A DNA stretch of 64,000 nt, taken from the NCBI GenBank assembly GCA_000092065.1, contig CP000585.1; one strand, written 5' to 3'. The position numbers were made by a program, and so were the translations under genes. Positions 3,671 to 48,128 of the stretch are shown here, piece by piece. The notes beneath the pieces were generated by a model. It searched no databases and was not told the origin of the DNA. It saw only the letters and a program-made list of their open reading frames with translations. The stretch is from Ostreococcus lucimarinus. Taxonomy: Eukaryota. How positions within the stretch are numbered: position 1 is the first letter of the stretch; every line of letters starts with the position of its first letter.

Positions 3671-4309
3671 TCATCCCGAAAGCAACGCGTGGACGCCGAA
3701 TAATAAAAACAAACATCCTCCGATCCCGGTGACGACGCGCTCGGCGTTGGCCGCGCGGTCGGCGAGTTGTCTACCACCGATCACGGCCACGCCCGTGCAC
3801 ACGGCGTGCCCGAGCGCTCCTCCCAGGGTGACGCCCGCGACGTCGCTCTGCGCCGCGAGTCCCACCGTCGCGATTTGCGACCTGTCGCCCCATTCCGCCA
3901 AAAAAGTCACCGCGAACGCCTCCGCGAACACCGCCCACGACGTCGTCGCCTTTTTCTTCGCGTTTCGCTGTCGTCCCGCGAGTTCGGCCTCGACTTCTTT
4001 CAACTCGTCGTCGTCGTCGTCGCCTCGCGCGCACGCGTCCCGAACGCCTCGCGCGCCGAATGCAAAAAACAACCCCGTCGCCGCCCGTTTCGTCACCACC
4101 GGCGACAGCGCTCTCGCCGACATCGTCCCCGCGCACGCGCTCAGCGCCGTCATCGCGAACAGCGCGCTCCACGCCCCCAGAAACACGTCGACGCGTCGTC
4201 GTTTCATCGCCATGAGCGCCGCGATGAAGAACGTCTTGTCGCCGATTTCGCTCAGCACGATCAGCCCGAACGCCTTCGACAGGCCCTCGACGAACGCCGT
4301 CGTCGTCAT
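3671..4309 (-). CDS. GDT1/TMEM165 (UPF0016) family Ca2+/Mn2+-H+ antiporter
   Basis: ATG start. Two internal repeats each carrying the E-x-G-D-(K/R)-(T/S) signature ('EIGDKT' and 'EWGDRS'), separated by an acidic loop. Hydrophobic helices throughout. Confidence 0.8.
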   Translation of the reverse strand: MTTTAFVEGLSKAFGLIVLSEIGDKTFFIAALMAMKRRRVDVFLGAWSALFAMTALSACAGTMSARALSPVVTKRAATGLFFAFGARGVRDACARGDDDDDELKEVEAELAGRQRNAKKKATTSWAVFAEAFAVTFLAEWGDRSQIATVGLAAQSDVAGVTLGGALGHAVCTGVAVIGGRQLADRAANAERVVTGIGGCLFLLFGVHALLSG

Positions 4310-4413: not shown

Positions 4414-5913
4414 ATGCGCCGTCGCGACGCCGCGCGTCGTCTCGCGCGCCTCGCGTCGTCCAACGCGCCGTCCTTCGTCGCGTGTCCCGCCGCGATGCGT
4501 CGTTGGCTCGTCGTCGACGGCGTCGCGGACGCGTTCGCGCTCGCGCGACCGAGCGCGGGGGCGGAGGCGCGCGCGCCGCGCGCGACGCTGTGGACGGAGC
4601 AGGACGAGGAGCCGCTGCCGAATCGCGCGGCGACGGTGCGAGAGGCGTTTCCCGCGCGCGGCGGGCGAGAGGGAGGGGTCGAGCGCGCGTTTCGAGGCGC
4701 GACGGAGGCGGAGCGCGCGCGAGGCGTCGACGTGGTGCTGGCGCGCGAGAACGCGAGGGAGAAACCGTTGGTCGTGGACGCGTACGCGCGCGAGAGCGCG
4801 AGAGAAACGTTTAGGCTGACGGATGCGGGCGTGGACGCGATCGCGTGGTTCGCGGCGCGCGGCGCGCGCGTGGGGGTGGAGACGGACGACGGGAACGGGT
4901 TGAGACGCGTCGAGCCGAGCGACGGATTGTTCGGAGGCGCGGAGACGTCGATCGAGGCGGGAAGGAGAGCGACGCATGGAGGGCAGAGCGCGAATGAGTG
5001 CTTGATGATCGTGCCGAGCGCGTTCGGGACGAACGCGCAGGCGGCGCGCGATAATCACTTTATGGCGTCGACGAGCGACGGATTGAGCGTTTTGGAGATT
5101 CGCGAACGCGCGGTGGCGGAGCATAAGGCGCTGTATCGAGGTTTACGAGCGCTCGGGATCGAGATTAATTTGTTCACGCACGACGAGAAGCACGCCACGC
5201 CGGACGCGTGTTTTCCGAACAATTGGCACACGCTTCGCGATGGAAAGTTGAAACTCTTTCCGATGAAGGACGAAAACCGCCGACTCGAGCGTCGGGAGGA
5301 TATCATCGAATTCTTGAAGCACAAGCACCCGAATTTGGTCGTGGACGACTCGCTGTTGCGATACGAGCGTCAAGACCCTCCAAAGTTTCTCGAAGGCACG
5401 GGATCGCTCGTGGTCGACCACGAAGAACGCGTCGCGTACGTCGCGCTTTCCGAACGCGCGCACGAGGAAGTCGTCGCCGAGCACTGCGCCGCCGAAAATC
5501 TCACGCCGATTACGTTTAAAGCCCTCGACGCTCGAGGTCGACCGATCTACCACACCAACGTCATGATGAGCGTGTGTTCTTCCGTCGCCATCGTCTGCGC
5601 CGACTCCATCGCCGATCCCGCCGATCGTCGACGCGTCCTCGACGCGCTCGCCGCGGGCGGCCGCCGTGAAATCATCACCATCACCCACGCCCAAGTCGAC
5701 GCCTTTTGCGGCAACGTCCTCGAGCTGCGCACCGCTTCCGGCGAGCCCGCCCTCGCGTGTTCCGCCCGCGCTTTCGCCGCCTTCGACGACGCGCAGCGCG
5801 CGCGACTCCGCGCCGCCTTCGACGACCGCGTCGTCGCCGTCGATTTCTCAACCATCGAGCGCGTCGGCGGCGGCGGCGTGCGCTGCGCCGTCGCCGAGCA
5901 CTTCGTTCCCTGA
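4414..5913 (+). CDS. Amidinotransferase-superfamily hydrolase (arginine deiminase / DDAH / CtlX-like) with N-terminal extension
   Basis: C-terminal ~300 aa carry 'FPNNWHT', 'HTNVMMSV' and a terminal 'GGGGVRCAVAE' catalytic-Cys motif, typical of the GME/amidinotransferase fold. First ATG at 4414. An alternative internal ATG at 5005 ('MIVPSAFGT') would give the canonical domain alone. Confidence 0.6.
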   Translation: MRRRDAARRLARLASSNAPSFVACPAAMRRWLVVDGVADAFALARPSAGAEARAPRATLWTEQDEEPLPNRAATVREAFPARGGREGGVERAFRGATEAERARGVDVVLARENAREKPLVVDAYARESARETFRLTDAGVDAIAWFAARGARVGVETDDGNGLRRVEPSDGLFGGAETSIEAGRRATHGGQSANECLMIVPSAFGTNAQAARDNHFMASTSDGLSVLEIRERAVAEHKALYRGLRALGIEINLFTHDEKHATPDACFPNNWHTLRDGKLKLFPMKDENRRLERREDIIEFLKHKHPNLVVDDSLLRYERQDPPKFLEGTGSLVVDHEERVAYVALSERAHEEVVAEHCAAENLTPITFKALDARGRPIYHTNVMMSVCSSVAIVCADSIADPADRRRVLDALAAGGRREIITITHAQVDAFCGNVLELRTASGEPALACSARAFAAFDDAQRARLRAAFDDRVVAVDFSTIERVGGGGVRCAVAEHFVP

Positions 5914-6184
5914 TCGTCCCGACGCGCGCGCCGCACCCGCGCGCGCGACGACGCGCGTTCGCGCCCATCCGTCCGACCGACCGCCTCTGTAACGACCGAC
6001 CGCCTCTGTAACGAAACCCGTTTTCGAATGCCAATGCGACATTCTCCGACGCGATCGCGCCGACGCGACGCGCCGACGCGACGCGCCGACGCACGCGCGC
6101 GACGCGCGCGAACGAACGCCGACGCGTCTCGGCGAATCGATCGCGTTCGCGATCGCGCGCGAATCCACCTAAAGTCGACGCGCC

Positions 6185-28503: not shown

Positions 28504-31500
28504 ATGCTGAAGAAACTCGGCAGTCGCAAAGATCGCGTCGTCACGTTCGTCGTCACCGTGCGCACGCTCGAACCGTGGCCCACGCGCGCGTCGGGCCGTC
28601 CCGGACAGTTCGCCATCGGTTGGCAGCGCGGCGCGAATAAACGCGGAACGACGCCCGTGCGCGCGGGCGAACGCTCCGATGACGGCGCGCGCGCGACGTA
28701 CGCGTTCGATCACACGTTTGAGGTCGAGGCGACGGTGCGCAGGGCGGGAAAGACGGGACACAAGGAGAAAACACTGACGCTGTACGTGTTGGCGCTGCCC
28801 GAAGACGCGACGCGCGGACGCGAGGTGACGGCGGCGAAGGTCGGGGCGTGCGACGTCGATCTGGCGAAATACGTCGATCGCACGGAGGATGAGACGATAA
28901 TGATCGACGTGGAGTGCGGCGAAGGGGTGCGACGGGCGGTGGGGACGCCGAAGCTTTCGATTTCCGTGCGCGCGAAGGAGGGCGGCGCGAACGCGGAGGG
29001 ACGCGAGGGCGAGGCGAACGCGGCGAACGCGTCGCCGTTGAAATCACCGACGGCGAGCGAACGCGGGGGCGAGTACCAGTGGGCGTCTTCGAGGTTTCAG
29101 TCGGAGCAGGCGAGCTCTTCGCAGGCGGATCAAGTGGAGGCGTTGACGAGCATGGCGAGCATGTTCAAAAAGCGCGCCGCGCCCGTCGAGGAAACCTCGG
29201 TCGTCGACGACGTCGTCGACGAGGGTTCCGAAGCCACGGCCAATGACGAAGCCGACGTTGAAGCGAATACGGCTCGAGCGGAACTAATCGTCGCGCGGGC
29301 GGCGACGCCGAAATCGGACGAATTTTCGTCGACGCCCGACGGCACTCCCGCGTTGGAGCAAGAAGATCCAGAGTTGACGCGAGCGCGCGACGAATTGTTT
29401 GGTGCGCCACCAAAAGATGCCGCGACGTCACCACGCGGTGACGTCGACTCCGATGGTTTCTTGCTCGATTCGGATCTGGACACCGAGGGCGAAGCGGACG
29501 AAGAGACCCCAGCGGAGTTCACTCGTCCAGTCGAAGAGTCGCCGGCGCGAGACGACTCTGAAAACGCCGCGGAGCAAGCGAGATTGGCCGAAGAAGAGGC
29601 GAGAATACGCGCTGAAGAAGACGCTGCTGTAGCTCGCATCGAAGCCGAACGCAAGGCATTTGAAGAAGAGGAGCGCCAGCTCGAAGAGCAAGCGCGACTC
29701 GAAGCTCAGCGAGCAGAGGAAGAAAGAGTTCGCGTCGACGAGGAAGCGAGGTACGCACGCATGGAAGCCGAACGCGCGCAAGCGGAAGAAGAAGCTCGAA
29801 GGTTGGCGGAAGAGGACGCGCTCTTCGCTGAAAATGCCGAGTATCAAAGACGCGCAGAGGAAGAGCAGCGCCTGCGCGCAGAGGAAGAGCAGCGCCTGCG
29901 CGCAGAGGAAGAGCAGCGCCTGCGCGCAGAGGAAGAGCAGCGCCTGCGCGCAGAGGAAGAGCAGCGCCTGCGCGCAGAGGAAGAGCAGCGCCTGCGCGCA
30001 GAGGAAGAGCGACGATGGGCTATGGAAGCCGAGGCTGAGCGCGCGCGCATCGAAGAAATTGAAAAGGCCCGAGCTCATGAAGCCGAAGCTGCGCGTAGAG
30101 CCGTGGAAGATGAAGACGTGGCGGCGGCGCAAATCGCTTCGATTGCACAGCAAGAACGTCAACAGCTGGCAGAAGAGGAAGCGATTAGAGCCGCTCAGGA
30201 AGAAGAGGAGCGACAGCGATTAGAAGATGAAAATCTTCGCACATCTGAACACGAGGCTCGATTGCAAGAGGAACGAGAACTTCAAGCCGAAGAGAACGCG
30301 AAGGCGGCTGCACGCGGCGACATTGATGTGTACGCTAAAGCAGTCATCACCGAGGGCGCGTCATCTGTCTTATTTTCGGACTCTGCTGACGACGTGACTG
30401 CGTTTGGTACACCGTCATCGCACAGCGACGACGCGTTCTACACTCCAGCCACTCGCGGGACGCGTTTCGCGGATTCGGTGCTTAAATCATCTCGCAATCG
30501 CGATTTGGAACACGAGATCGTGAGTATGTCCATTTGTGATATTCTCATTCACAGCACTGCGGAGGATTCGAGCTTCACTACCGCTCTTGGTCTTCAAGAA
30601 CGAATTGCGAGCGTGCGCGCCACGCTCGGAGAGCGCGAGTCTCAACTCGAGTTCAACAGAATCACGGACGCTTTCGGTGTCGCGATTAAAGGGGCGATGC
30701 ATAATCCAGCACGACTCGTGTTCTTATGTGCTCAGCTTATCGCGCTGCGAATTTGCGTGGCCACGATGGATGACTTGGACACGCGCGACGTGATCGAACT
30801 CGAAGTCTTGGCTCGAAACGCCGCGTTTGAGTCGCTCTGGAAGCACACTTGCAGTGCATTAGTAAACCCTGGCGAAGTGACGGAAACGCTCGCACACTTC
30901 ATGAAATCCTTCTGTGGGCCTTCGCCGAATGGAGATGGTGAGAAGATAGGTCGCGCCTGGTCTGCAATGTTTCAGCTCGCCAAGACGCGACTCGACATCA
31001 TCGGTGGCGACGCCGACGACGCCGGCTGCTCTTCGCAACTACTATTGACGCAGCTCCGACAAGGCATCTTGAAGGAGATTATTCTTGCACTTGACAAGTC
31101 TGTATTAGATGCATTGATTCATCCGTCTGGCGATGCCCTGGCAAACCCGATGATACCCGGTGGCGGCGCGTTGACGTTTTCAGCGGGTGCCGAATTGAAG
31201 CGAGCAATTTCTGTACTCGCCAGCGTCGCCAAAGATCTCAACGTTGGCACGAGTACTGAATCGATCATCCCGAAACTCAGAGCCGTCGCAGATGTGTGCA
31301 TGATTCCGAAGGACGCATTGATTGACGTCAAGCTTCGCACGGATATCGTGTGCGGCAAACTCACGGACGAGGAACTTGCCAGCGTCGTCTCGCGATTCCG
31401 CCCTGACGATTTCGCGCCCCAACCCGTGGACCCGGACGTCATCTCCGCCGTCGTCGACGCGGCGACGAATGGAAAGGGTGACACGCCCCCCGCGATCGGA

Positions 31501-40623: not shown

Positions 40624-42111
40624 CTAGAGTAACATCGTCATCGGATCTTCTAAATAACACTTGAAGGATTGAAGCCACTGCGCCCCCACGGCTCCATCCA
40701 CGACGCGATGATCGCAGCTCAAAGTCGCGCTCATTACCAAGACTTCCTCGTAGCCGCCCTCTGCGTTCTTGACGACTTCCTTTCTAGCTCCGCCGACGGC
40801 GAGGATCGCCGCTTGCGGCGGGTTTACGATCGCAGCGAAGTTCTTCACGCCGAACATGCCGAGGTTGCTAATGGTAAACGTGCCTCCAGTCATGTCCTGG
40901 GGCGTGAGAGAGCCGCTGCGCGCGCGGCCGGCGAGCGACTTGACTTCGGCGCTGATAGACTTCAACCCCAGGCAGCACGCAGATCGCACGATGGGCACCA
41001 TCAGCCCGCGCTCGGTCTGCACCGCTACAGAAATATCAGCTTTTTTGTACTTGCGAATCTTATCGCCCAACCAGCTGGCGTTCACGTCCGGCACCGCGAG
41101 CAACGCCTTGGCGCTCGCCTTGACGATGAAATCGTTCACGCTAATCTTCGCCCCTTCCGCAGCCTTATCATCAGCGAGCTGCTTGTTCAACGTTTCACGA
41201 ATCCCCATCATGTTATCCAAGCGCACGTCTACGGTGAGATAGAAATGCGGCAGTTGCTGCTTGCTTTCCGTCAAGCGCTCCGCGGTGACGCGCTTGATGG
41301 CGCTCACGCTCACGTCTTCGAAATCCGGGAAAAACTTGGACAACGGATGTTCCGCCACAACCGTGTGCGTCACCGCCTCACTCGCGCTCGACGCGCGCGC
41401 CGTGAGCACGTCCTCGGCGATCACGCGCCCGTTCGGCCCACTCCCGCTCACGGTCTCCAATCGCACGCCTCGTTCCTCGGCCAACCGTCTCGCCAGCGGC
41501 GACGCGAACACCCGTTCCCCGCTCGCGCGCGCGCTCATCCGCGCCGTCGCGCGCGTCGACGCCCTCACCACCGGCATCGTCACCGCCGTCTCCACCGCGC
41601 TCTTCGCCGGTTCCGTCGTCACCGTCTCCGTCGCTTTATAATCCTTAAACGCCGCCACCGCGCTCGCCTCCTCGCACATCACGCACACCGGCGTCCCCAC
41701 CTCCACGTCCGTCGCTCCCTCGGGCACCAGGATCGCCGCCAGGTACCCATCATCCGTCGCTTCCATCGCCATCGTCGCCTTATCCGTCTCCACGTCCGCG
41801 ATCGCGTCGCCGGCTTTGATTTCATCGCCGATCGCGCGATGCCACCGCGCGATCCCACCGCGCTCCATCGTCGGCGACAGCGCCGGCATCGGCAGCACGA
41901 CGTGCTCGGGGAGCGTCGACGACGACGACGCGAATCGCGCGCGCGCGGACGCGTCGAGCGCGGCGCGCGCGGCGCGCGCGCGCGAGGACGCGTCGACGGT
42001 CGCGCGCGCGAACGTCGAGGCGCGCGCGCGCGACGACGACGACGACGACGACGACGCCGGCGCGGGCGCGCGCGCGGCGGCGACGACGGCGCGAGCGAGC
42101 GCGCGACGCAT
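40624..42111 (-). CDS. DLAT: Dihydrolipoamide acetyltransferase, E2 component of pyruvate dehydrogenase (mitochondrial)
   Basis: Lipoyl domain 'PMPALSPTMERGGIARWH...IADVETDKATMAMEA', E3-binding region, catalytic domain ending 'DHRVVDGAVGAQWL'. Ser/Ala/Arg-rich presequence. Confidence 0.9.
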   Translation of the reverse strand: MRRALARAVVAAARAPAPASSSSSSSSRARASTFARATVDASSRARAARAALDASARARFASSSSTLPEHVVLPMPALSPTMERGGIARWHRAIGDEIKAGDAIADVETDKATMAMEATDDGYLAAILVPEGATDVEVGTPVCVMCEEASAVAAFKDYKATETVTTEPAKSAVETAVTMPVVRASTRATARMSARASGERVFASPLARRLAEERGVRLETVSGSGPNGRVIAEDVLTARASSASEAVTHTVVAEHPLSKFFPDFEDVSVSAIKRVTAERLTESKQQLPHFYLTVDVRLDNMMGIRETLNKQLADDKAAEGAKISVNDFIVKASAKALLAVPDVNASWLGDKIRKYKKADISVAVQTERGLMVPIVRSACCLGLKSISAEVKSLAGRARSGSLTPQDMTGGTFTISNLGMFGVKNFAAIVNPPQAAILAVGGARKEVVKNAEGGYEEVLVMSATLSCDHRVVDGAVGAQWLQSFKCYLEDPMTMLL

Positions 42112-42377
42112 CGCGCGCGCGTCGCGGCGAGCGTCGCTCGGGCGACGCGCGAGGACGTGTGCGGACGACGCGTCGGGCGCGCGTCGCGTCGAGGGCTACT
42201 CCCGGGTGTTTCGGGCGCGCGCGTCGTCGCGCGCCGCGCGTCCGACGGCGCGGCGCGATGATCGATCGAATCTGCGCGAGGAATACGCATCGCTAACTAC
42301 GCTAGAGCTAATCTACGGTCGTCGCGAACGCGCGCGCGTCGCGCGACGATTCGGCGGCGGCGCGCGCCGCGAGCGCG

Positions 42378-42989
42378 CTACGCGTCGGCGACGGCGCGGC
42401 GACCCGGCGGTAACGCCGGTTTCTTCCGCACTATCGGCGGCGCCGGCGGGTCGTCGTTCGCGCGCACGCCGTCACCGTCGCCGTCGCGCGTCCCTCTGGG
42501 AGCCGCCGCCGCGGGCGCCGCGCGAAGCGTCGTCGCCGCCAACCGTCTCGCGACTTCGGACGCCGGCGTCGCCGCCGCGCCCACGCGCACCGTCACCGCC
42601 TCGCTCGGATCGAACTCCACGAATTTCGGCGCCCTCGCCGCGACGTCGGACGTCGACCGCGCGTCGAGGTCGACGCGCGCGTCCCGCGCCGCGCGTTCCC
42701 GCGTCCCGACCGCGTCGCCGCCGCCGCGCGCCGCCGCGCGCACCTCTCCCGCGTTCGCCAGCGCCACCCCACTCGTCGTCCGCGCCAGCGCCGCGCGCGC
42801 GACCGCGACCGTCGCGCCGCGCTCGACGTCCTCGATCGTCGCCACCCCGGTCCAGCGCTCGCGCTCGACGACGACGACCTCACCGTCACCCGTCGCGAGC
42901 CGCAGTTTGAGCGTGCGACTCGCGCGCGCGTCCTCGCGCGCGCGCGCGCCGCGCGCGACGTCGCGCGCGTCCACGACGCGCAGCGCGAC

Positions 42990-43026
<37 letters not shown>

Positions 43027-43049
43027 CGCGCGACGCCCGACGGACGCAT
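42378..43049 (-). CDS. Hypothetical protein (low-complexity, Asp/Gly and Ala/Arg-rich)
   Basis: ATG-initiated 223-aa ORF filling the ~1-kb gap between PDH-E2 and the SUN gene. Its start is 49 bp from the SUN ATG (divergent). Composition is only weakly protein-like. Confidence 0.3.
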
Positions 43050-43097: not shown

Positions 43098-43247
43098 ATG
43101 CCCGCACGCGCGCCGGCGAGGACGCGCGCGCCGGCGACGAGCGCGGAGACGCGCGCGAAAAGCGCGACGCGCGCGCGCGGAGACGCGCGCGACACGCGCG
43201 GCGCGGACGCGCGCGATGATGATTTAAACGAAAAAGATGACCGTTCG

Positions 43248-43280
<33 letters not shown>

Positions 43281-46200
43281 TGCGACGACGCGTGGGGCGT
43301 CGCGCGCGGCGAGCGAGACGTGCGCGCGGGAATGATACGCGTGCGGAGCACGGTGCCGCTGATCGTGAGCACGCTGTGCGTGGTGGTGACGGCGCTCATC
43401 GCGGTGTGCGCGCAGAGCTGGCACGTGCGCGAGACGGCGATGCGGTTGGCGAGCGTGCGATTGAGCGCGACGAGCGTGAAGCTCGGACCGACGACGAGAC
43501 GGTTGACAGCGCTCGAGGATGCGGTGAGGAGATTGGAGAGCGAGAAGGCGAGCGTGCGCGCGGTGGATGGGGTGAAGGCGACGGTGGAGGCGGAGCGCGC
43601 GGCGAACGCGGCGAACGCGGCGACGACGACGACGGACGCGAAGGTCGTCAAGACGGAGATGAAGGCGGAGTTGAAATCGGTTTTGGCGCAGATTGATGCG
43701 TTGAGTAAGCGACAAAATAGTTTCGTGACGACCGCGGAGCTTAAGAAGAGCAGTGGCGCTCTCAAGGCGGAGCTCGCGGAACTCGAAAAGACGGCCGCGG
43801 CGCTCGAAAAGAAGCAAGCGAACTTCGCGGCCAAGACGGAGCTCGCGTCGCTCGAGAAGACCACCGCGGCGCTCGACAAGGGACAAGCCAATTTCGTCAC
43901 CAAAGCGCAGCTTCAAAAGGTGAACGTCGCGAACGATCTCGCACTGTCTGCTGAGCGCTTACGAATCGACGACGCCATCAAGGAGGCCAAGTCGCTTCGA
44001 GACGCCATCGACGCCGTATCCAAGAGCTTGGCGCAGATTGATGCGTTGAGTAAGCGACAAAATAGTTTCGTGACGACCGCGGAGCTTAAGAAGAGCAGTG
44101 GCGCTCTCAAGGCGGAGCTCGCGGAACTCGAAAAGACGGCCGCGGCGCTCGAAAAGAAGCAAGCGAACTTCGCGGCCAAGACGGAGCTCGCGTCGCTCGA
44201 GAAGACCACCGCGGCGCTCGACAAGGGACAAGCCAATTTCGTCACCAAAGCGCAGCTTCAAAAGGTGAACGTCGCGAACGATCTCGCACTGTCTGCTGAG
44301 CGCTTACGAATCGACGACGCCATCAAGGAGGCCAAGTCGCTTCGAGACGCCATCGACGCCGTATCCAAGAGCTTGGCGCAGATTGATGCGTTGAGTAAGC
44401 GACAAAATAGTTTCGTGACGACCGCGGAGCTTAAGAAGAGCAGTGGCGCTCTCAAGGCGGAGCTCGCGGAACTCGAAAAGACGGCCGCGGCGCTCGAAAA
44501 GAAGCAAGCGAACTTCGCGGCCAAGACGGAGCTCGCGTCGCTCGAGAAGACCACCGCGGCGCTCGACAAGGGACAAGCCAATTTCGTCACCAAAGCGCAG
44601 CTTCAAAAGGTGAACGTCGCGAACGATCTCGCACTGTCTGCTGAGCGCTTACGAATCGACGACGCCATCAAGGAGGCCAAGTCGCTTCGAGACGCCATCG
44701 ACGCCGTATCCAAGAGCTTGGCGCAGATTGATGCGTTGAGTAAGCGACAAAATAGTTTCGTGACGACCGCGGAGCTTAAGAAGAGCAGTGGCGCTCTCAA
44801 GGCGGAGCTCGCGGAACTCGAAAAGACGGCCGCGGCGCTCGAAAAGAAGCAAGCGAACTTCGCGGCCAAGACGGAGCTCGCGTCGCTCGAGAAGACCACC
44901 GCGGCGCTCGACAAGGGACAAGCCAATTTCGTCACCAAAGCGCAGCTTCAAAAGGTGAACGTCGCGAACGATCTCGCACTGTCTGCTGAGCGCTTACGAA
45001 TCGACGACGCCATCAAGGAGGCCAAGTCGCTTCGAGACGCCATCGACGCCGTATCCAAGAGCCAGGACGTCTTCATCACGAATACTACTCTCCGACGAGT
45101 GGAGTCACAAATCGAAGCGCTGAAGAAGATGCAAGCAAAGAAGGGATTCTTCTCAACACGGCCGAAAGGGCCGGTCGTTTCCGACGAGCAGATTGCGATG
45201 CTCGAGGCCACGGTTGCTACTTTTGCGACACATTTGGCGGATTTGGAAAAGAACCAAGCCGACTTCGTGACCACAGCGCAACTGCAAAAGTTCGAGGGCG
45301 CTTCGGAGGAAATCAAGTCGCTCCAGAGGGAAATTCACGTTGTTTCCAAGAAGCAAGCCAACTACGTCAGCGTGGCGCAATTACAAAAGCTCGAAGTGGT
45401 GACGGATGAAATTAAATCGCTGCAGAGTGAGATTTCGGCGCTCGCTAAGACGCAAGACGAGTTTGCTATTCTCAGCGCGAGTCTTAAGGATGTTGAGAGT
45501 AAGATCGCGGCGTTGGCGGATGGTAAGAAGAAGACCGGGCTCCTCTCTAAGCTTTCGAAGAAGACAGACACCAAGGTCACCAACAAGCAACTTGTTGAGC
45601 TCGAGAACGCTGTCGCGACGTTGGAGAAGACTCAGACGAAATTCGCTTCGCTTGCGAGTTCACAGATCAGCACGTTGGAGTCTACTCTTGATGCGATTTC
45701 GCAGCAGCAATCCAGTGCGCTCACAGCTGCTGATTTGAAGAGTATTCAAAAGGCCATCACGGCGCTGGAGAAGAGTCAGGAAAGTTTCGCGACGACTGCA
45801 CAGCTACAGAAAGTGGATGCATCTCGAGAGATCAAGGCTTTGGAAGAAGCTTTAGCGGAGATTCTACAGAGTCAGCATTCGTTTGCGAACTCGACTGCCG
45901 TCGAAGAGCTTGAGACGAAAGTCATGGCACTCGAAGCTCGACAAAACGAAAAGCGCGGTGGGATGTTCAAGCGAAGCGCGAGCACCGACACCTCTGTCAC
46001 CAATAAGCAACTCAAGGCTTTAGAAGACACCATCGCGGCCCTGACGAAGAGTCAAGCGGACTTCGCCACGGTTACCCAGCTGAAAGAAAGTGCGCAGGCG
46101 CTTTCGCAACAGCAAGCCGGCGCGCTTACGGCGGCTGACTTGAAGGGCATTCAAAAAGCAGTCGCGTCGCTAGAAAAGAGTCAGAACGGTTTCGCGACGA

Positions 46201-48128
46201 CGGCGCAATTACAAAAGCTCGAAGTGGTGACAGATGAAATTAAATCGCTGCAGAGTGAGATTTCGGCGCTCGCTAAGACGCAAGACGAGTTTGCTATTCT
46301 CAGCGCGAGTCTTAAGGATGTTGAGAGTAAGATCGCGGCGTTGGCGGATGGTAAGAAGAAGACCGGGCTCCTCTCTAAGCTTTCGAAGAAGACAGACACC
46401 AAGGTCACCAACAAGCAACTCAAGGCTCTAGAAGACGCCATCGCGGCTCTGACGAAGAGTCAAGCGGACTTCGCCACGGTTACCCAGCTGAAAGAAAGTG
46501 CGCAGGCGCTTTCGCAACAGCAAGCCGGCGCGCTTACGGCGGCTGACTTGAAGGGCATTCAAAAAGCAGTCGCGTCGCTAGAAAAGAGTCAGAACGGTTT
46601 CGCGACGACGGCGCAATTACAAAAGCTCGAAGTGGTGACAGATGAAATTAAATCGCTGCAGAGTGAGATTTCGGCGCTCGCTAAGACGCAAGACGAGTTT
46701 GCTATTCTCAGCGCGAGTCTTAAGGATGTTGAGAGTAAGATCGCGGCGTTGGCGGATGGTAAGAAGAAGACCGGGCTCCTCTCTAAGCTTTCGAAGAAGA
46801 CAGACACCAAGGTCACCAACAAGCAACTCAAGGCTCTAGAAGACGCCATCGCGGCTCTGACGAAGAGTCAAGCGGACTTCGCCACGGTTACCCAGCTGAA
46901 AGAAAGTGCGCAGGCGCTTTCGCAACAGCAAGCCGGCGCGCTTACGGCGGCTGACTTGAAGGGCATTCAAAAAGCAGTCGCGTCGCTAGAAAAGAGTCAG
47001 AACGGTTTCGCGACGACGGCGCAATTACAAAAGCTCGAAGTGGTGACAGATGAAATTAAATCGCTGCAGAGTGAGATTTCGGCGCTCGCTAAGACGCAAG
47101 ACGAGTTTGCTATTCTCAGCGCGAGTCTTAAGGATGTTGAGAGTAAGATCGCGGCGTTGGCGGATGGTAAGAAGAAGACCGGGCTCCTCTCTAAGCTTTC
47201 GAAGAAGACAGACACCAAGGTCACCAACAAGCAACTCAAGGCTCTAGAAGACGCCATCGCGGCTCTGACGAAGAGTCAAGCGGACTTCGCCACGGTTACC
47301 CAGCTGAAAAAGGTTGCCGCCACGTTGGATGCGTTGAAAAACGTGCACGACAATTATGCGACGACGAAACTTGTGAAGAACTTGGAACTCAAGCTGAACC
47401 AGGTGATCAAAACGAGCGGGGGGCTGTCGACGACGCAGACAAATTTGGTGGAGTTAGAGCAAAGAGCGATGGAGCGCGTTGAGAGTTATATTAAAACAAT
47501 CCCGAAAGATACCTCGAGAAAGCTCACGAAACACATCGAGGAGGCTTCGAGTTTGTGGTTTGCGGACAGAACTGGAAGGCAGGACTTCGCGCTCGCTTCA
47601 GGTGGCGGGCGCGTCGTCGGTCACTCTCAGCTTTCGCCGTTTGTAGGCCGTGGCGACGGTCCCATCACGTCGGTGCTTTCGTTCCTTCAATCCGGAGTGC
47701 ATCCGAAGAGCGACGAGTGGTTACTCACGCCGTCTTTGGAGCAACCAGGGGATTGTATCGCGTTGCATTCGTCGACCGGTTATGTTGATGTTCGTTTGCG
47801 TCAGTCTGTGAAAGTGGACGCGGTCACGCTCGAGCACGCGAATAGCTTGAACGCGTACGACTTGCACAGCGCGCCACGAGATGTACAAGTATACGGTTGG
47901 CACGCACGCAAGAAGAGTTGCAAGCATAGCAAACCGCCCAAGTCGTTGATTCCTCTCGGCAACTACACGTACAGTATCAACCGCGGAAGCGTACAAACTT
48001 TCGACGTGGTGTCACCGCAGACCGTCGACCATGTGCGTCTAGTGGTGAAGAACAATCAAGGGCACCAGAAGTGGACGTGCCTGTACCGGTTCCGAGTACA
48101 CGGCGTGCCAGAACGAGTCGAAGCGTGA
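43098..48128 (+). CDS. SUN-domain (Sad1/UNC-84) nuclear-envelope protein with giant repetitive coiled-coil
   Basis: ATG start. Short acidic N-terminus (D13 run). Single TM ('LIVSTLCVVVTALIAVCAQ'). ~1,350 aa Ala/Lys/Glu/Leu-rich coiled coil built from 115-aa and 136-aa tandem units. C-terminal SUN domain ('...ITSVLSFLQSGVHPKSDEWLLTP...GDCIALHSSTGYVDVRLRQSVKVDAVTLEHAN...QKWTCLYRFRVHG'). Confidence 0.85.
43690..45060. repeat. 345-bp tandem repeat, 4 nucleotide-identical copies (115-aa coiled-coil unit 'SLAQIDALSKRQNSFVTTAELKKSSGALKAELAELEKTAAALEKKQANF...')
   Basis: Antisense ORFs at 43913-44248, 44258-44593 and 44603-44938 are identical, giving a 345-bp period. The protein shows four identical 115-aa units. 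Confidence 0.9.
45365..47300. repeat. 408-bp tandem repeat family, 3 identical copies plus divergent flanking partial copies (136-aa unit 'TNKQLKALEDAIAALTKSQADFATVTQLKESAQALSQQQAGALTAADLKGIQKAVASLEKSQNGF...')
   Basis: Antisense ORFs at 46181-46441, 46589-46849 and 46997-47257 are identical, giving a 408-bp period. An earlier diverged copy starts at ~45365. Confidence 0.9.

Follow-up and report, generated by a model that had tools for sequence, protein, structure and literature searches.

A probable in-frame tandem amplification in the rod of a predicted SUN-domain protein of Ostreococcus lucimarinus

Proteins of the canonical Cter-SUN type, such as human SUN1 and SUN2, UNC-84 of C. elegans, and SUN1 and SUN2 of Arabidopsis, end in a SUN domain with conserved cysteines, preceded by one transmembrane (TM) helix and a luminal linker of helical structure. 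Their luminal region comprises roughly 300 aa in plants and 450–600 aa in animals. Long, near-identical in-frame units within a structural spacer are known from the FLO/ALS adhesins of yeast, whose number of units is changed by recombination or slippage, and variable intragenic arrays of this sort are routinely collapsed in short-read assembly. Another membrane-anchored helical rod in a lumen is that of CLIMP-63, whose length could set the inter-membrane distance. For human SUN1/2, modelling describes this linker as a rod of ~45 nm that crosses an envelope of 40–50 nm (PMC4615189).

In the window analysed here, a continuous stretch of 64,000 nucleotides (64 kb) from the very small green alga O. 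lucimarinus, a 345-bp unit is repeated in tandem at 43683..45062. Tandem Repeats Finder describes the array with a period of 345 bp, 4.0 copies, 100% matches and 0% indels, and a second repeat search returned four copies spaced 345 bp apart, each at 100%. The initial annotation had placed four base-identical copies at 43690-45060, and this is borne out with coordinates that were off by at most 7 bp. When one unit was compared with the whole window by BLAST, four full-length matches were obtained, all of them within the array, which rules out a dispersed repeat in these 64 kb. A chance origin is impossible given 1380 bp of perfect periodicity. The array lies on the plus strand and in frame, at 115 codons per unit, inside an uninterrupted ORF of 1676 codons (43098..48128, plus strand), where it encodes aa 196-655. 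Our reading, which we hold with high but not full confidence, is that these four identical 115-codon copies arose by a coding, in-frame tandem amplification within a single-exon Cter-SUN gene.

What does this ORF encode? Pfam assigns aa 1540-1670 of the 1676 to Sad1_UNC (PF07738) with E=1.1e-25 and 90.7 bits (cut-off 22), and a phmmer search of the PDB matched human SUN1 and SUN2 with E about 3e-20. From 43098 to 48128 the coding frame contains 0 stops, versus 61 and 72 in the other two plus frames. In BLAST alignments with a strain of ~95% nucleotide identity (L009), substitutions are distributed 21/13/48 over codon positions 1/2/3, of which 48 are synonymous and 34 non-synonymous in the sense frame. 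The coding strand at the array is the plus strand. The order TrmO, PDH-E2, small ORF, SUN, TopoVIB is common to the window and O. tauri, and the flanking genes are alike in the window, on O. tauri chromosome 5 (L024) and in a sister species (L002, L025). The flanking PDH-E2 is identical in 421/421 positions to XP_001418025.1 of O. lucimarinus CCE9901. From reading frame, Pfam domain and synteny we identify the ORF as the predicted Cter-SUN protein of O. lucimarinus, the syntenic orthologue of the O. tauri protein annotated as "Sad1/UNC-like, C-terminal", and by homology it would be a protein of the inner nuclear membrane. No protein on record matched the 1676-aa product exactly, and scans of the 64-kb window for Rfam families and tRNAs were both empty.

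The protein is laid out as an N-terminus of ~83 aa, one TM helix, a predicted helical rod of ~1370 aa and the C-terminal SUN domain. The N-terminus, in which a poly-Asp tail comes after a basic stretch, is presumed to be nucleoplasmic. The single predicted TM helix (aa 84-106, TVPLIVSTLCVVVTALIAVCA; 43347..43415, plus strand) is the sole place in the protein where the Kyte-Doolittle mean over 19 residues exceeds 1.6, with a maximum of 2.65, and it is kept in the ~95% strain, the sister species (L002), P0265 and O. tauri (P0293). The SUN domain and its preceding helix are encoded at 47529..48110 (plus strand), including the invariant cysteine of PGDC and a C-terminal TCLYRFRVHG motif. An AF2 model of the domain has a pLDDT above 90 across most of its length, and the best 12 Foldseek matches are all SUN1/SUN2 structures, ranging from E 1.9e-19 (rank 1, SUN2 4DXT) to 5.3e-16 (rank 12). 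Within the C-terminal 342-aa fragment, C219 (in PGDC), C327, Y329, R330 and G335 are invariant in 39 SUN proteins. PGDC aligns with PGNC of human SUN1 and contains the first conserved SUN cysteine, which we take to be the one that forms the disulfide with KASH.

The rod is composed of 29 copies of a ~30-aa module with the consensus LK.L...IAAL.K.Q..FAT.AQL.K and contains only 4 prolines in ~1370 aa. Three modules make up one 345-bp unit, and tandem amplification has affected two kinds of three-module block, one of 115 aa and one of 136 aa. The 136-aa blocks form a second repeat region at 45374..47309 (plus strand), with a period of 408 bp (136 codons), 4.7 copies and 83% identity overall, in which the older copies have diverged. 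Its perfect core (46041..47309, plus strand; 3.1 x 408 bp, 100% identity at lag 408 bp, with zero mismatches at this lag from 46041 to 46901) lies ~1 kb downstream of the 345-bp array in the same gene. Both perfect arrays together account for about 880 of the 1676 residues, that is, about half of the protein. The rod is predicted to be helical: AF2 models of rod pieces are helical throughout at low model confidence, and the model for aa 180-440 consists entirely of helices, which are interrupted at the F-V-T of the module, again at low confidence (pLDDT 63, pTM 0.27, single sequence). The hydrophobic periodicity peaks most strongly at 3.32 residues, which corresponds to a harmonic of the 136-aa repeat, and a clean 3.5-residue (heptad) signal was not found in this spectrum, which repeat harmonics dominate. 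The rod may form a trimeric coiled coil or be folded back on itself.

How stable is the copy number within the species? For comparison, 20 other O. lucimarinus assemblies containing both flanks are available, all of them short-read metagenomes. One copy is present in 11 of the 20, including the ~95% diverged strain, two copies in 2, and a 100-N gap interrupts the array in 6; none has four. The earlier suspicion that assemblers mishandle such repeats is therefore well founded. The gaps are flanked by 55-bp overlaps, which indicates that the assembly graph breaks exactly at the repeat, and the 408-bp array is collapsed or gapped in short-read assemblies as well. One-copy, two-copy and gapped states are the expected collapse of a perfect repeat and hence no proof of polymorphism; the copy-number differences among assemblies of the species could all be collapse artefacts. 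In one short-read assembly (L001) a SNP separates the two copies, and 20-21 of 345 positions differ in the single unit of the ~95% strain. A query of aa 78-425, covering the TM helix, its flank and two units, found no homologue at E<=1e-20, in a search where 8000 word-sharing candidates crowd out true relatives.

Orthologues in two other Ostreococcus species likewise carry near-perfect arrays in frame, each with its own different units. The syntenic O. tauri protein XP_022839032.1 / CEF98022.1 (1067 aa, 609 aa shorter than that of the window) is likewise arranged as a TM helix, a rod of helical modules and a SUN domain, and its rod, too, has near-perfect in-frame tandem arrays. Its 552-nt array has 2.7 copies at 99.5% identity, so that 2.7 units of 184 aa stand against 4 units of 115 aa and 3.1 units of 136 aa in the window. 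The C-terminal 342 aa of the window protein are 61% identical to P0004, the representative of a 90%-identity cluster that includes the O. tauri protein, and full-length alignments with the orthologues reach from the TM helix to the SUN domain. In the sister species two arrays are present, one of 516 nt with 4.07 perfect copies and one of 201 nt; its homologous unit is 36 aa longer, with 50% protein identity. For this species, a contig from long reads disagrees with an independent protein record on both arrays (3.2 versus at least 4-5 copies, and 2.2 versus 4.2), which may reflect strain or assembly error. All five large periods (345, 408, 201, 516 and 552 nt) are divisible by 3, for which the chance is about (1/3)^5 = 0.4%.

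These observations allow several readings of the array to be weighed. The true count in the sequenced strain might not be four, if the array had been collapsed or inflated, with part of its identity stemming from consensus building, and consensus building or polishing can indeed exaggerate the identity of copies. Four copies are reproduced by no other assembly fetched, the assembly graph is seen to break at the repeat, and reference assemblies of this gene are open to some doubt too: in the same gene, the O. tauri reference has a perfect 193-nt duplication that breaks the frame, and its gene model requires an annotated 49-nt 'intron' across it. However, the discordant assemblies are throughout short-read metagenomes, unable to resolve a perfect repeat of 1.4 kb; the 1676-codon frame is intact through both arrays; and the sister-species long-read contig, with its multi-copy perfect arrays, argues that such arrays are real in the genus. 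The CCE9901 genome is said to have been Sanger-sequenced and finished, in which case clone sizes would constrain the 1.4-kb array. We consider an artefact of this kind unlikely, and nothing shows the four-copy count of the window to be in error. Rather doubtful, too, is a single and very recent burst of duplication, static ever since, in which identity signals youth without ongoing exchange. Such a young amplification also predicts zero differences among four copies, and what is seen of copy number within the species comes from short-read assemblies. Against it, two separate arrays of the same gene are both perfect, at least four further near-perfect arrays with different units exist in the orthologues of two other species, and the two sister-species records differ in copy number at both arrays; many coincident one-off events are a less parsimonious account than a locus prone to repeats in which turnover continues. 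The initial annotation had proposed homogenisation by ongoing unequal crossing-over. The 100% identity of the copies, set beside the 20-21 differences per unit to the ~95% strain and the divergence from the sister-species unit, supports either homogenisation or recent independent amplification, so that this proposal fits without being the sole one to do so.

Do the reading frames on the opposite strand carry information of their own? Three identical ORFs of 111 aa, taken from the ORF list, recur at the 345-bp period on the minus strand (43913-44248, 44258-44593 and 44603-44938), as had been pointed out before, and a further antisense frame holds three identical 100-aa ORFs in the array. A tandem family of real genes for small minus-strand proteins could be read into them, given that all are open and identical, with TTG as the start codon, and that substitutions relative to the ~95% strain are not strongly non-synonymous in the 111-aa frame (40 synonymous to 42 non-synonymous). 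This near-neutral ratio is accounted for by wobble positions that the 111-aa frame has in common with the sense frame. The antisense ORFs have no matches in Pfam, their products are low-complexity mirror images of Ala/Leu/Lys/Glu codons, and codon-shuffled units have at most 1 stop in the two antisense frames in 100% and 83.5% of trials, so composition alone keeps these frames open. The sense frame, in contrast, is continuous over 1676 codons with a conserved domain at its end and synteny kept in three species. Minus-strand genes are thus barely conceivable here; the antisense ORFs are non-coding by-products of codon composition, and the emphasis once placed on them was misleading, since they add nothing to the repeat itself. 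Hardly more credible is the insertion of a satellite or a mobile, selfish repeat into the gene, for example a palindromic coding element of the PARCEL type. A published study does list an O. lucimarinus protein among the carriers of palindromic amphipathic coding repeats, and it remarks on ORFs on the opposite strand of such elements. Yet that protein is a different one (XP_001422294.1), its motif is a 25-aa DUF285-type repeat, and Pfam finds no DUF285/TIGR02167-type domain in the window protein at E up to 0.1. The 345-bp unit is absent from the rest of the window and is built from the same ~30-aa module as the non-repeated rod and the orthologues, which marks it as endogenous.

Returning to the in-frame coding amplification, we propose that the long perfect repeats undergo unequal recombination or replication slippage, by which whole units would be added or removed and at the same time kept identical, with selection retaining solely those changes that preserve the frame. 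Each unit would lengthen the spacer between the membrane anchor and the KASH-binding head by two predicted helices of ~55 residues, as the family suggests. In consequence, the luminal rod would change rapidly in length, and would do so separately in each Ostreococcus species, with the anchor and the SUN domain kept constant.

Protein length is about 1070 aa in O. tauri and 1676 aa in O. lucimarinus, and in the third species it ranges from 1400 to about 1950 aa; the rod appears to have been rebuilt by independent tandem amplifications in each. By analogy, one might go as far as to regard the luminal rod of Ostreococcus SUN as a fast-evolving modular 'ruler', tuned in length by the gain and loss of whole 115-184-aa units, though this is a long shot. 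If it held, the rod, which in extended form would measure up to ~200 nm, would far exceed a normal perinuclear space of 30-50 nm, its role would go beyond simple bridging of the envelope, and natural length variants would offer a direct test of the 'molecular ruler' idea for SUN proteins (PMC4615189). The nuclear envelope of Ostreococcus has been reported to be open and to organise other organelles (PMC1939878). Should the number of units truly vary by strain, length variants of a nuclear-envelope spacer would exist naturally in the smallest free-living eukaryote. There is also a practical side: the gene is truncated, gapped or collapsed in every short-read assembly fetched, and automated gene calls consequently yield either pieces of 267-1061 aa or antisense genes that are spurious, which affects comparisons of protein length or of presence and absence among picoalgal SUN proteins.

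Compared with known systems, the kind of feature is ordinary: an intragenic coding tandem repeat, here in an unusually long SUN protein, and not a new type of system. The likeness to CLIMP-63 is one of function alone, as the sequences are unrelated. With the FLO/ALS adhesins the protein shares long in-frame units, but it is a predicted internal protein of the nuclear envelope and not a surface antigen or adhesin, and length polymorphism between strains is at most a possibility in this species. Like the canonical Cter-SUN proteins, the window protein has a C-terminal SUN domain with the conserved cysteines and a SUN2-like predicted fold (E about 1e-19 in Foldseek, with a TM-score to target of 0.73). 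One predicted TM helix and a luminal linker predicted to be helical come before it, and its best named sequence matches are plant SUN1/2. Its luminal region comprises about 1570 aa, and the protein is, as far as is known, unusually long for the family. The rod is a lineage-specific array of the Q..F.T module, which plant and animal SUN proteins lack, and, unlike in the canonical proteins, over half of it derives from recent tandem amplification.

The repeat block reported in the initial annotation as four identical 345-bp copies is borne out. Tandem Repeats Finder places it at 43683..45062 and counts 4.0 copies, which match at 100% without indels. A second repeat search and a lag scan confirm the array, the lag scan revealing no differences among the four copies, and a BLAST search of one unit against the 64-kb window returns full-length matches to these copies only. 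What the annotation overlooked is that the block encodes part of the rod of a SUN protein, the helical luminal region between its TM helix and its SUN domain, and that a second perfect array lies nearby. As 345 = 3 x 115, the array is in frame with a plus-strand ORF (43098..48128) of 1676 uninterrupted codons. Across this interval the coding frame contains 0 stops, compared with 61 and 72 in the other two plus-strand frames.

Pfam detects a C-terminal Sad1/UNC (SUN) domain (E=1.1e-25), and the final 200 residues resemble the solved human SUN1/SUN2 domains (E about 3e-20). An AlphaFold model of the SUN region, built on a 39-sequence alignment, has a mean pLDDT of 75.7 and exceeds 90 over most of the domain; the top 12 Foldseek hits are all SUN2/SUN1 structures, with E from 1.9e-19 at rank 1 to 5.3e-16 at rank 12. 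Hydrophobicity analysis shows a single hydrophobic helix at aa 84-106 of the plus-strand product. The SUN domain and its fold, the TM helix and the conserved cysteines place the window gene in the Cter-SUN family, and its product has the standard layout of these nuclear-envelope proteins with a very long luminal part.

In O. tauri the gene has an annotated orthologue (XP_022839032.1, 1067 aa, 'Sad1/UNC-like, C-terminal'). O. tauri and the window have the gene order TrmO, PDH-E2, small conserved ORF, SUN and TopoVIB in common, and the adjoining PDH-E2 is identical at 421/421 residues to that of O. lucimarinus CCE9901 (XP_001418025.1), which assigns the window to this species and probably to this strain. 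A third species, the sister species, contributes two contigs, L002 and L025, and one protein record of 1400 aa, P0265. O. lucimarinus SUN genes have already been counted in a survey of plant SUN genes (PMC7982736), in which no mention of the rod was found.

Between PDH-E2 and the SUN gene lies a 223-aa ORF whose N-terminus carries a GD repeat (42378-43049, minus strand). It is syntenically conserved in all three Ostreococcus species and divergently oriented to the SUN gene, the two start codons being only 48 bp apart. Between genes and at gene 5' ends GC content rises to 78%, against 52-58% inside genes, and CG-dinucleotide and CGA microsatellites occur (41936-42151; profile of 42001-43000). 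Much of this sequence seems to code for N-terminal extensions rich in Ala/Arg/Ser, the PDH-E2 presequence being one example. Elsewhere, a tandem repeat (CGCGCAGAGGAAGAGCAGCGCCTG) runs through 29851-30010 in 6.7 perfect copies of 24 bp, an 8-codon repeat if coding.

The antisense ORFs emphasized in the initial annotation exist, and they are irrelevant. The ORF listing includes the three identical 111-aa frames on the minus strand (43913-44248, 44258-44593, 44603-44938), and a second antisense frame holds three more identical ORFs of 100 aa each. They are by-products rather than real genes: none matches a Pfam family, and when the codons of the unit were shuffled in 2000 trials, the two antisense frames that hold these ORFs still had no more than one stop per unit, one of them in 100% of trials and the other in 83.5%. 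Comparison with L009, a contig from a diverged O. lucimarinus strain, gives 21/13/48 substitutions at plus-frame codon positions 1/2/3, of which 48 are synonymous and 34 non-synonymous. The 111-aa frame scores only slightly worse (40:42) because it has its wobble positions in common with the sense frame. By their substitution ratios the remaining antisense frames (15:67 and 12:70) are clearly non-coding.

The rod extends over ~1370 residues from the TM helix to the SUN domain, is rich in Ala/Lys/Leu/Ser/Thr/Glu/Gln and has four prolines only. It is composed of a ~30-aa module (consensus LK.L...IAAL.K.Q..FAT.AQL.K) in 29 copies, 15 of them distinct. The module also occurs in the Ostreococcus-like relatives P0002, P0004 (the representative of a 90%-identity cluster that includes the O. 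tauri protein), P0006 and P0007; it was not found in one more distant relative or in plant SUNs. Its Gln and Phe are invariant (K.Q..F[AV]T) and irregularly spaced at 23-64 residues over aa 206-1397. This Gln would occupy a core-like position within the flanking L/I/L/F pattern. For aa 180-440, AlphaFold run on the sequence alone gives a low-confidence model (pLDDT 63, pTM 0.27) that is all-helical, with short breaks that coincide with the F-V-T of the modules.

The second repeat region covers 45374-47309 on the plus strand (Tandem Repeats Finder period 408). Its perfect core (46041-47309; 408 bp or 136 codons x 3.1, 100% identity at lag 408) sits 3' of older, diverged 408-bp copies. Both the 115-aa and the 136-aa unit contain three modules, and about 880 of the protein's 1676 residues come from the two perfect arrays.

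Is the copy number in the window correct? The behaviour of other assemblies warrants the suspicion of instability or mis-assembly; we found no evidence that the window itself is wrong. We compared 22 further conspecific contigs, all short-read metagenome assemblies (21 at 98.5-99.9% nucleotide identity, L009 at ~95%). None of the 20 that contain both flanks carries four copies. A single copy is present in L003, L006, L007, L010, L013, L019-L023 and the diverged L009; two are present in L001, where they differ by one SNP, and in L005, where they are identical; and L004 and L014-L018 have, within the array, a 100-N gap with 55-bp repeat overlaps at its borders. These are the outcomes to be expected when a perfect repeat exceeds the k-mer: one copy if the loop is skipped, two if it is walked once, or a gap. 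The 408-bp array is likewise collapsed, gapped or at a contig end. Short reads thus cannot assemble the 345-bp array, and these copy states are no demonstration of strain differences, although the two-copy contigs prove at least two copies in the populations behind them. On these metagenome contigs, prokaryote-style gene callers give the SUN gene as 267-, 390- or 1061-aa fragments (L001, L003, L004, L014-L018) and predict false antisense ORFs across the rod (e.g. 491 aa, 106 aa), so that most database entries for this gene are truncated.

The alternative offered initially, that ongoing exchange keeps the copies homogenised, fits the data. Copies within the window show zero differences in the 408-bp array (3.1 copies) too; flanks of conspecific strains diverge by 0.5-1%, and the single unit of L009 differs at 20-21 of 345 positions. 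Repeated-unit copies are identical within each species, and the 136-aa unit is only 50% identical to its 172-aa homologue in the sister species, the two differing by 36 aa in length. The O. tauri rod has a 552-nt array (2.7 copies, 99.5%). In the sister species, the Pilon-polished 848-kb long-read contig L025 (ENA ERZ28548078 hoskyn_2 contig_25682_pilon) has a 516-nt array of 4.07 perfect copies, with one further copy that contains an 11-nt indel; its 201-nt array has 4.2 copies. All five large periods are divisible by three. The independent record P0265 has only 3.2 and 2.2 copies of the two arrays. A single in-frame stop (about 4073) and a single frameshift (about 5860-6025) break the L025 gene (3002-9093, about 1950 codons); these and the extra units may reflect errors in the long reads or genuine differences. 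The simplest reading we infer is that the rod is prone to repeats and that gain, loss and homogenisation act on its units as wholes, events that selection for an open frame would filter. The O. tauri gene on chromosome 5 (L024; GCA_000214015.2, CAID01000005.2) also carries a perfect 193-nt x 2.0 duplication (3858-4244), not a multiple of three; its gene model restores the frame through a 49-nt 'intron' inside the duplication (4033-4081), an arrangement that may stem from an assembly error or an annotation patch.

Number-varying coding tandem repeats that confound assemblers are well known. Less ordinary are the size of this luminal rod and its separate rebuilding in each species from perfect arrays of that species' own. 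Judged by homology, the protein should be an inner-nuclear-membrane anchor presenting its SUN head in the lumen. The O. tauri nuclear envelope is reported to be unusual, being largely open and organising other organelles (PMC1939878); any connection with the giant SUN protein is speculative. As one continuous helix the rod would measure about 200 nm (1370 residues x 0.15 nm), in a lumen 30-50 nm wide (PMC4615189). The low-confidence model, with its predicted helix breaks at every F-V-T, suggests that it may fold back. By comparison, published modelling of the human SUN1/2 linker gives a rod of ~45 nm (PMC4615189).
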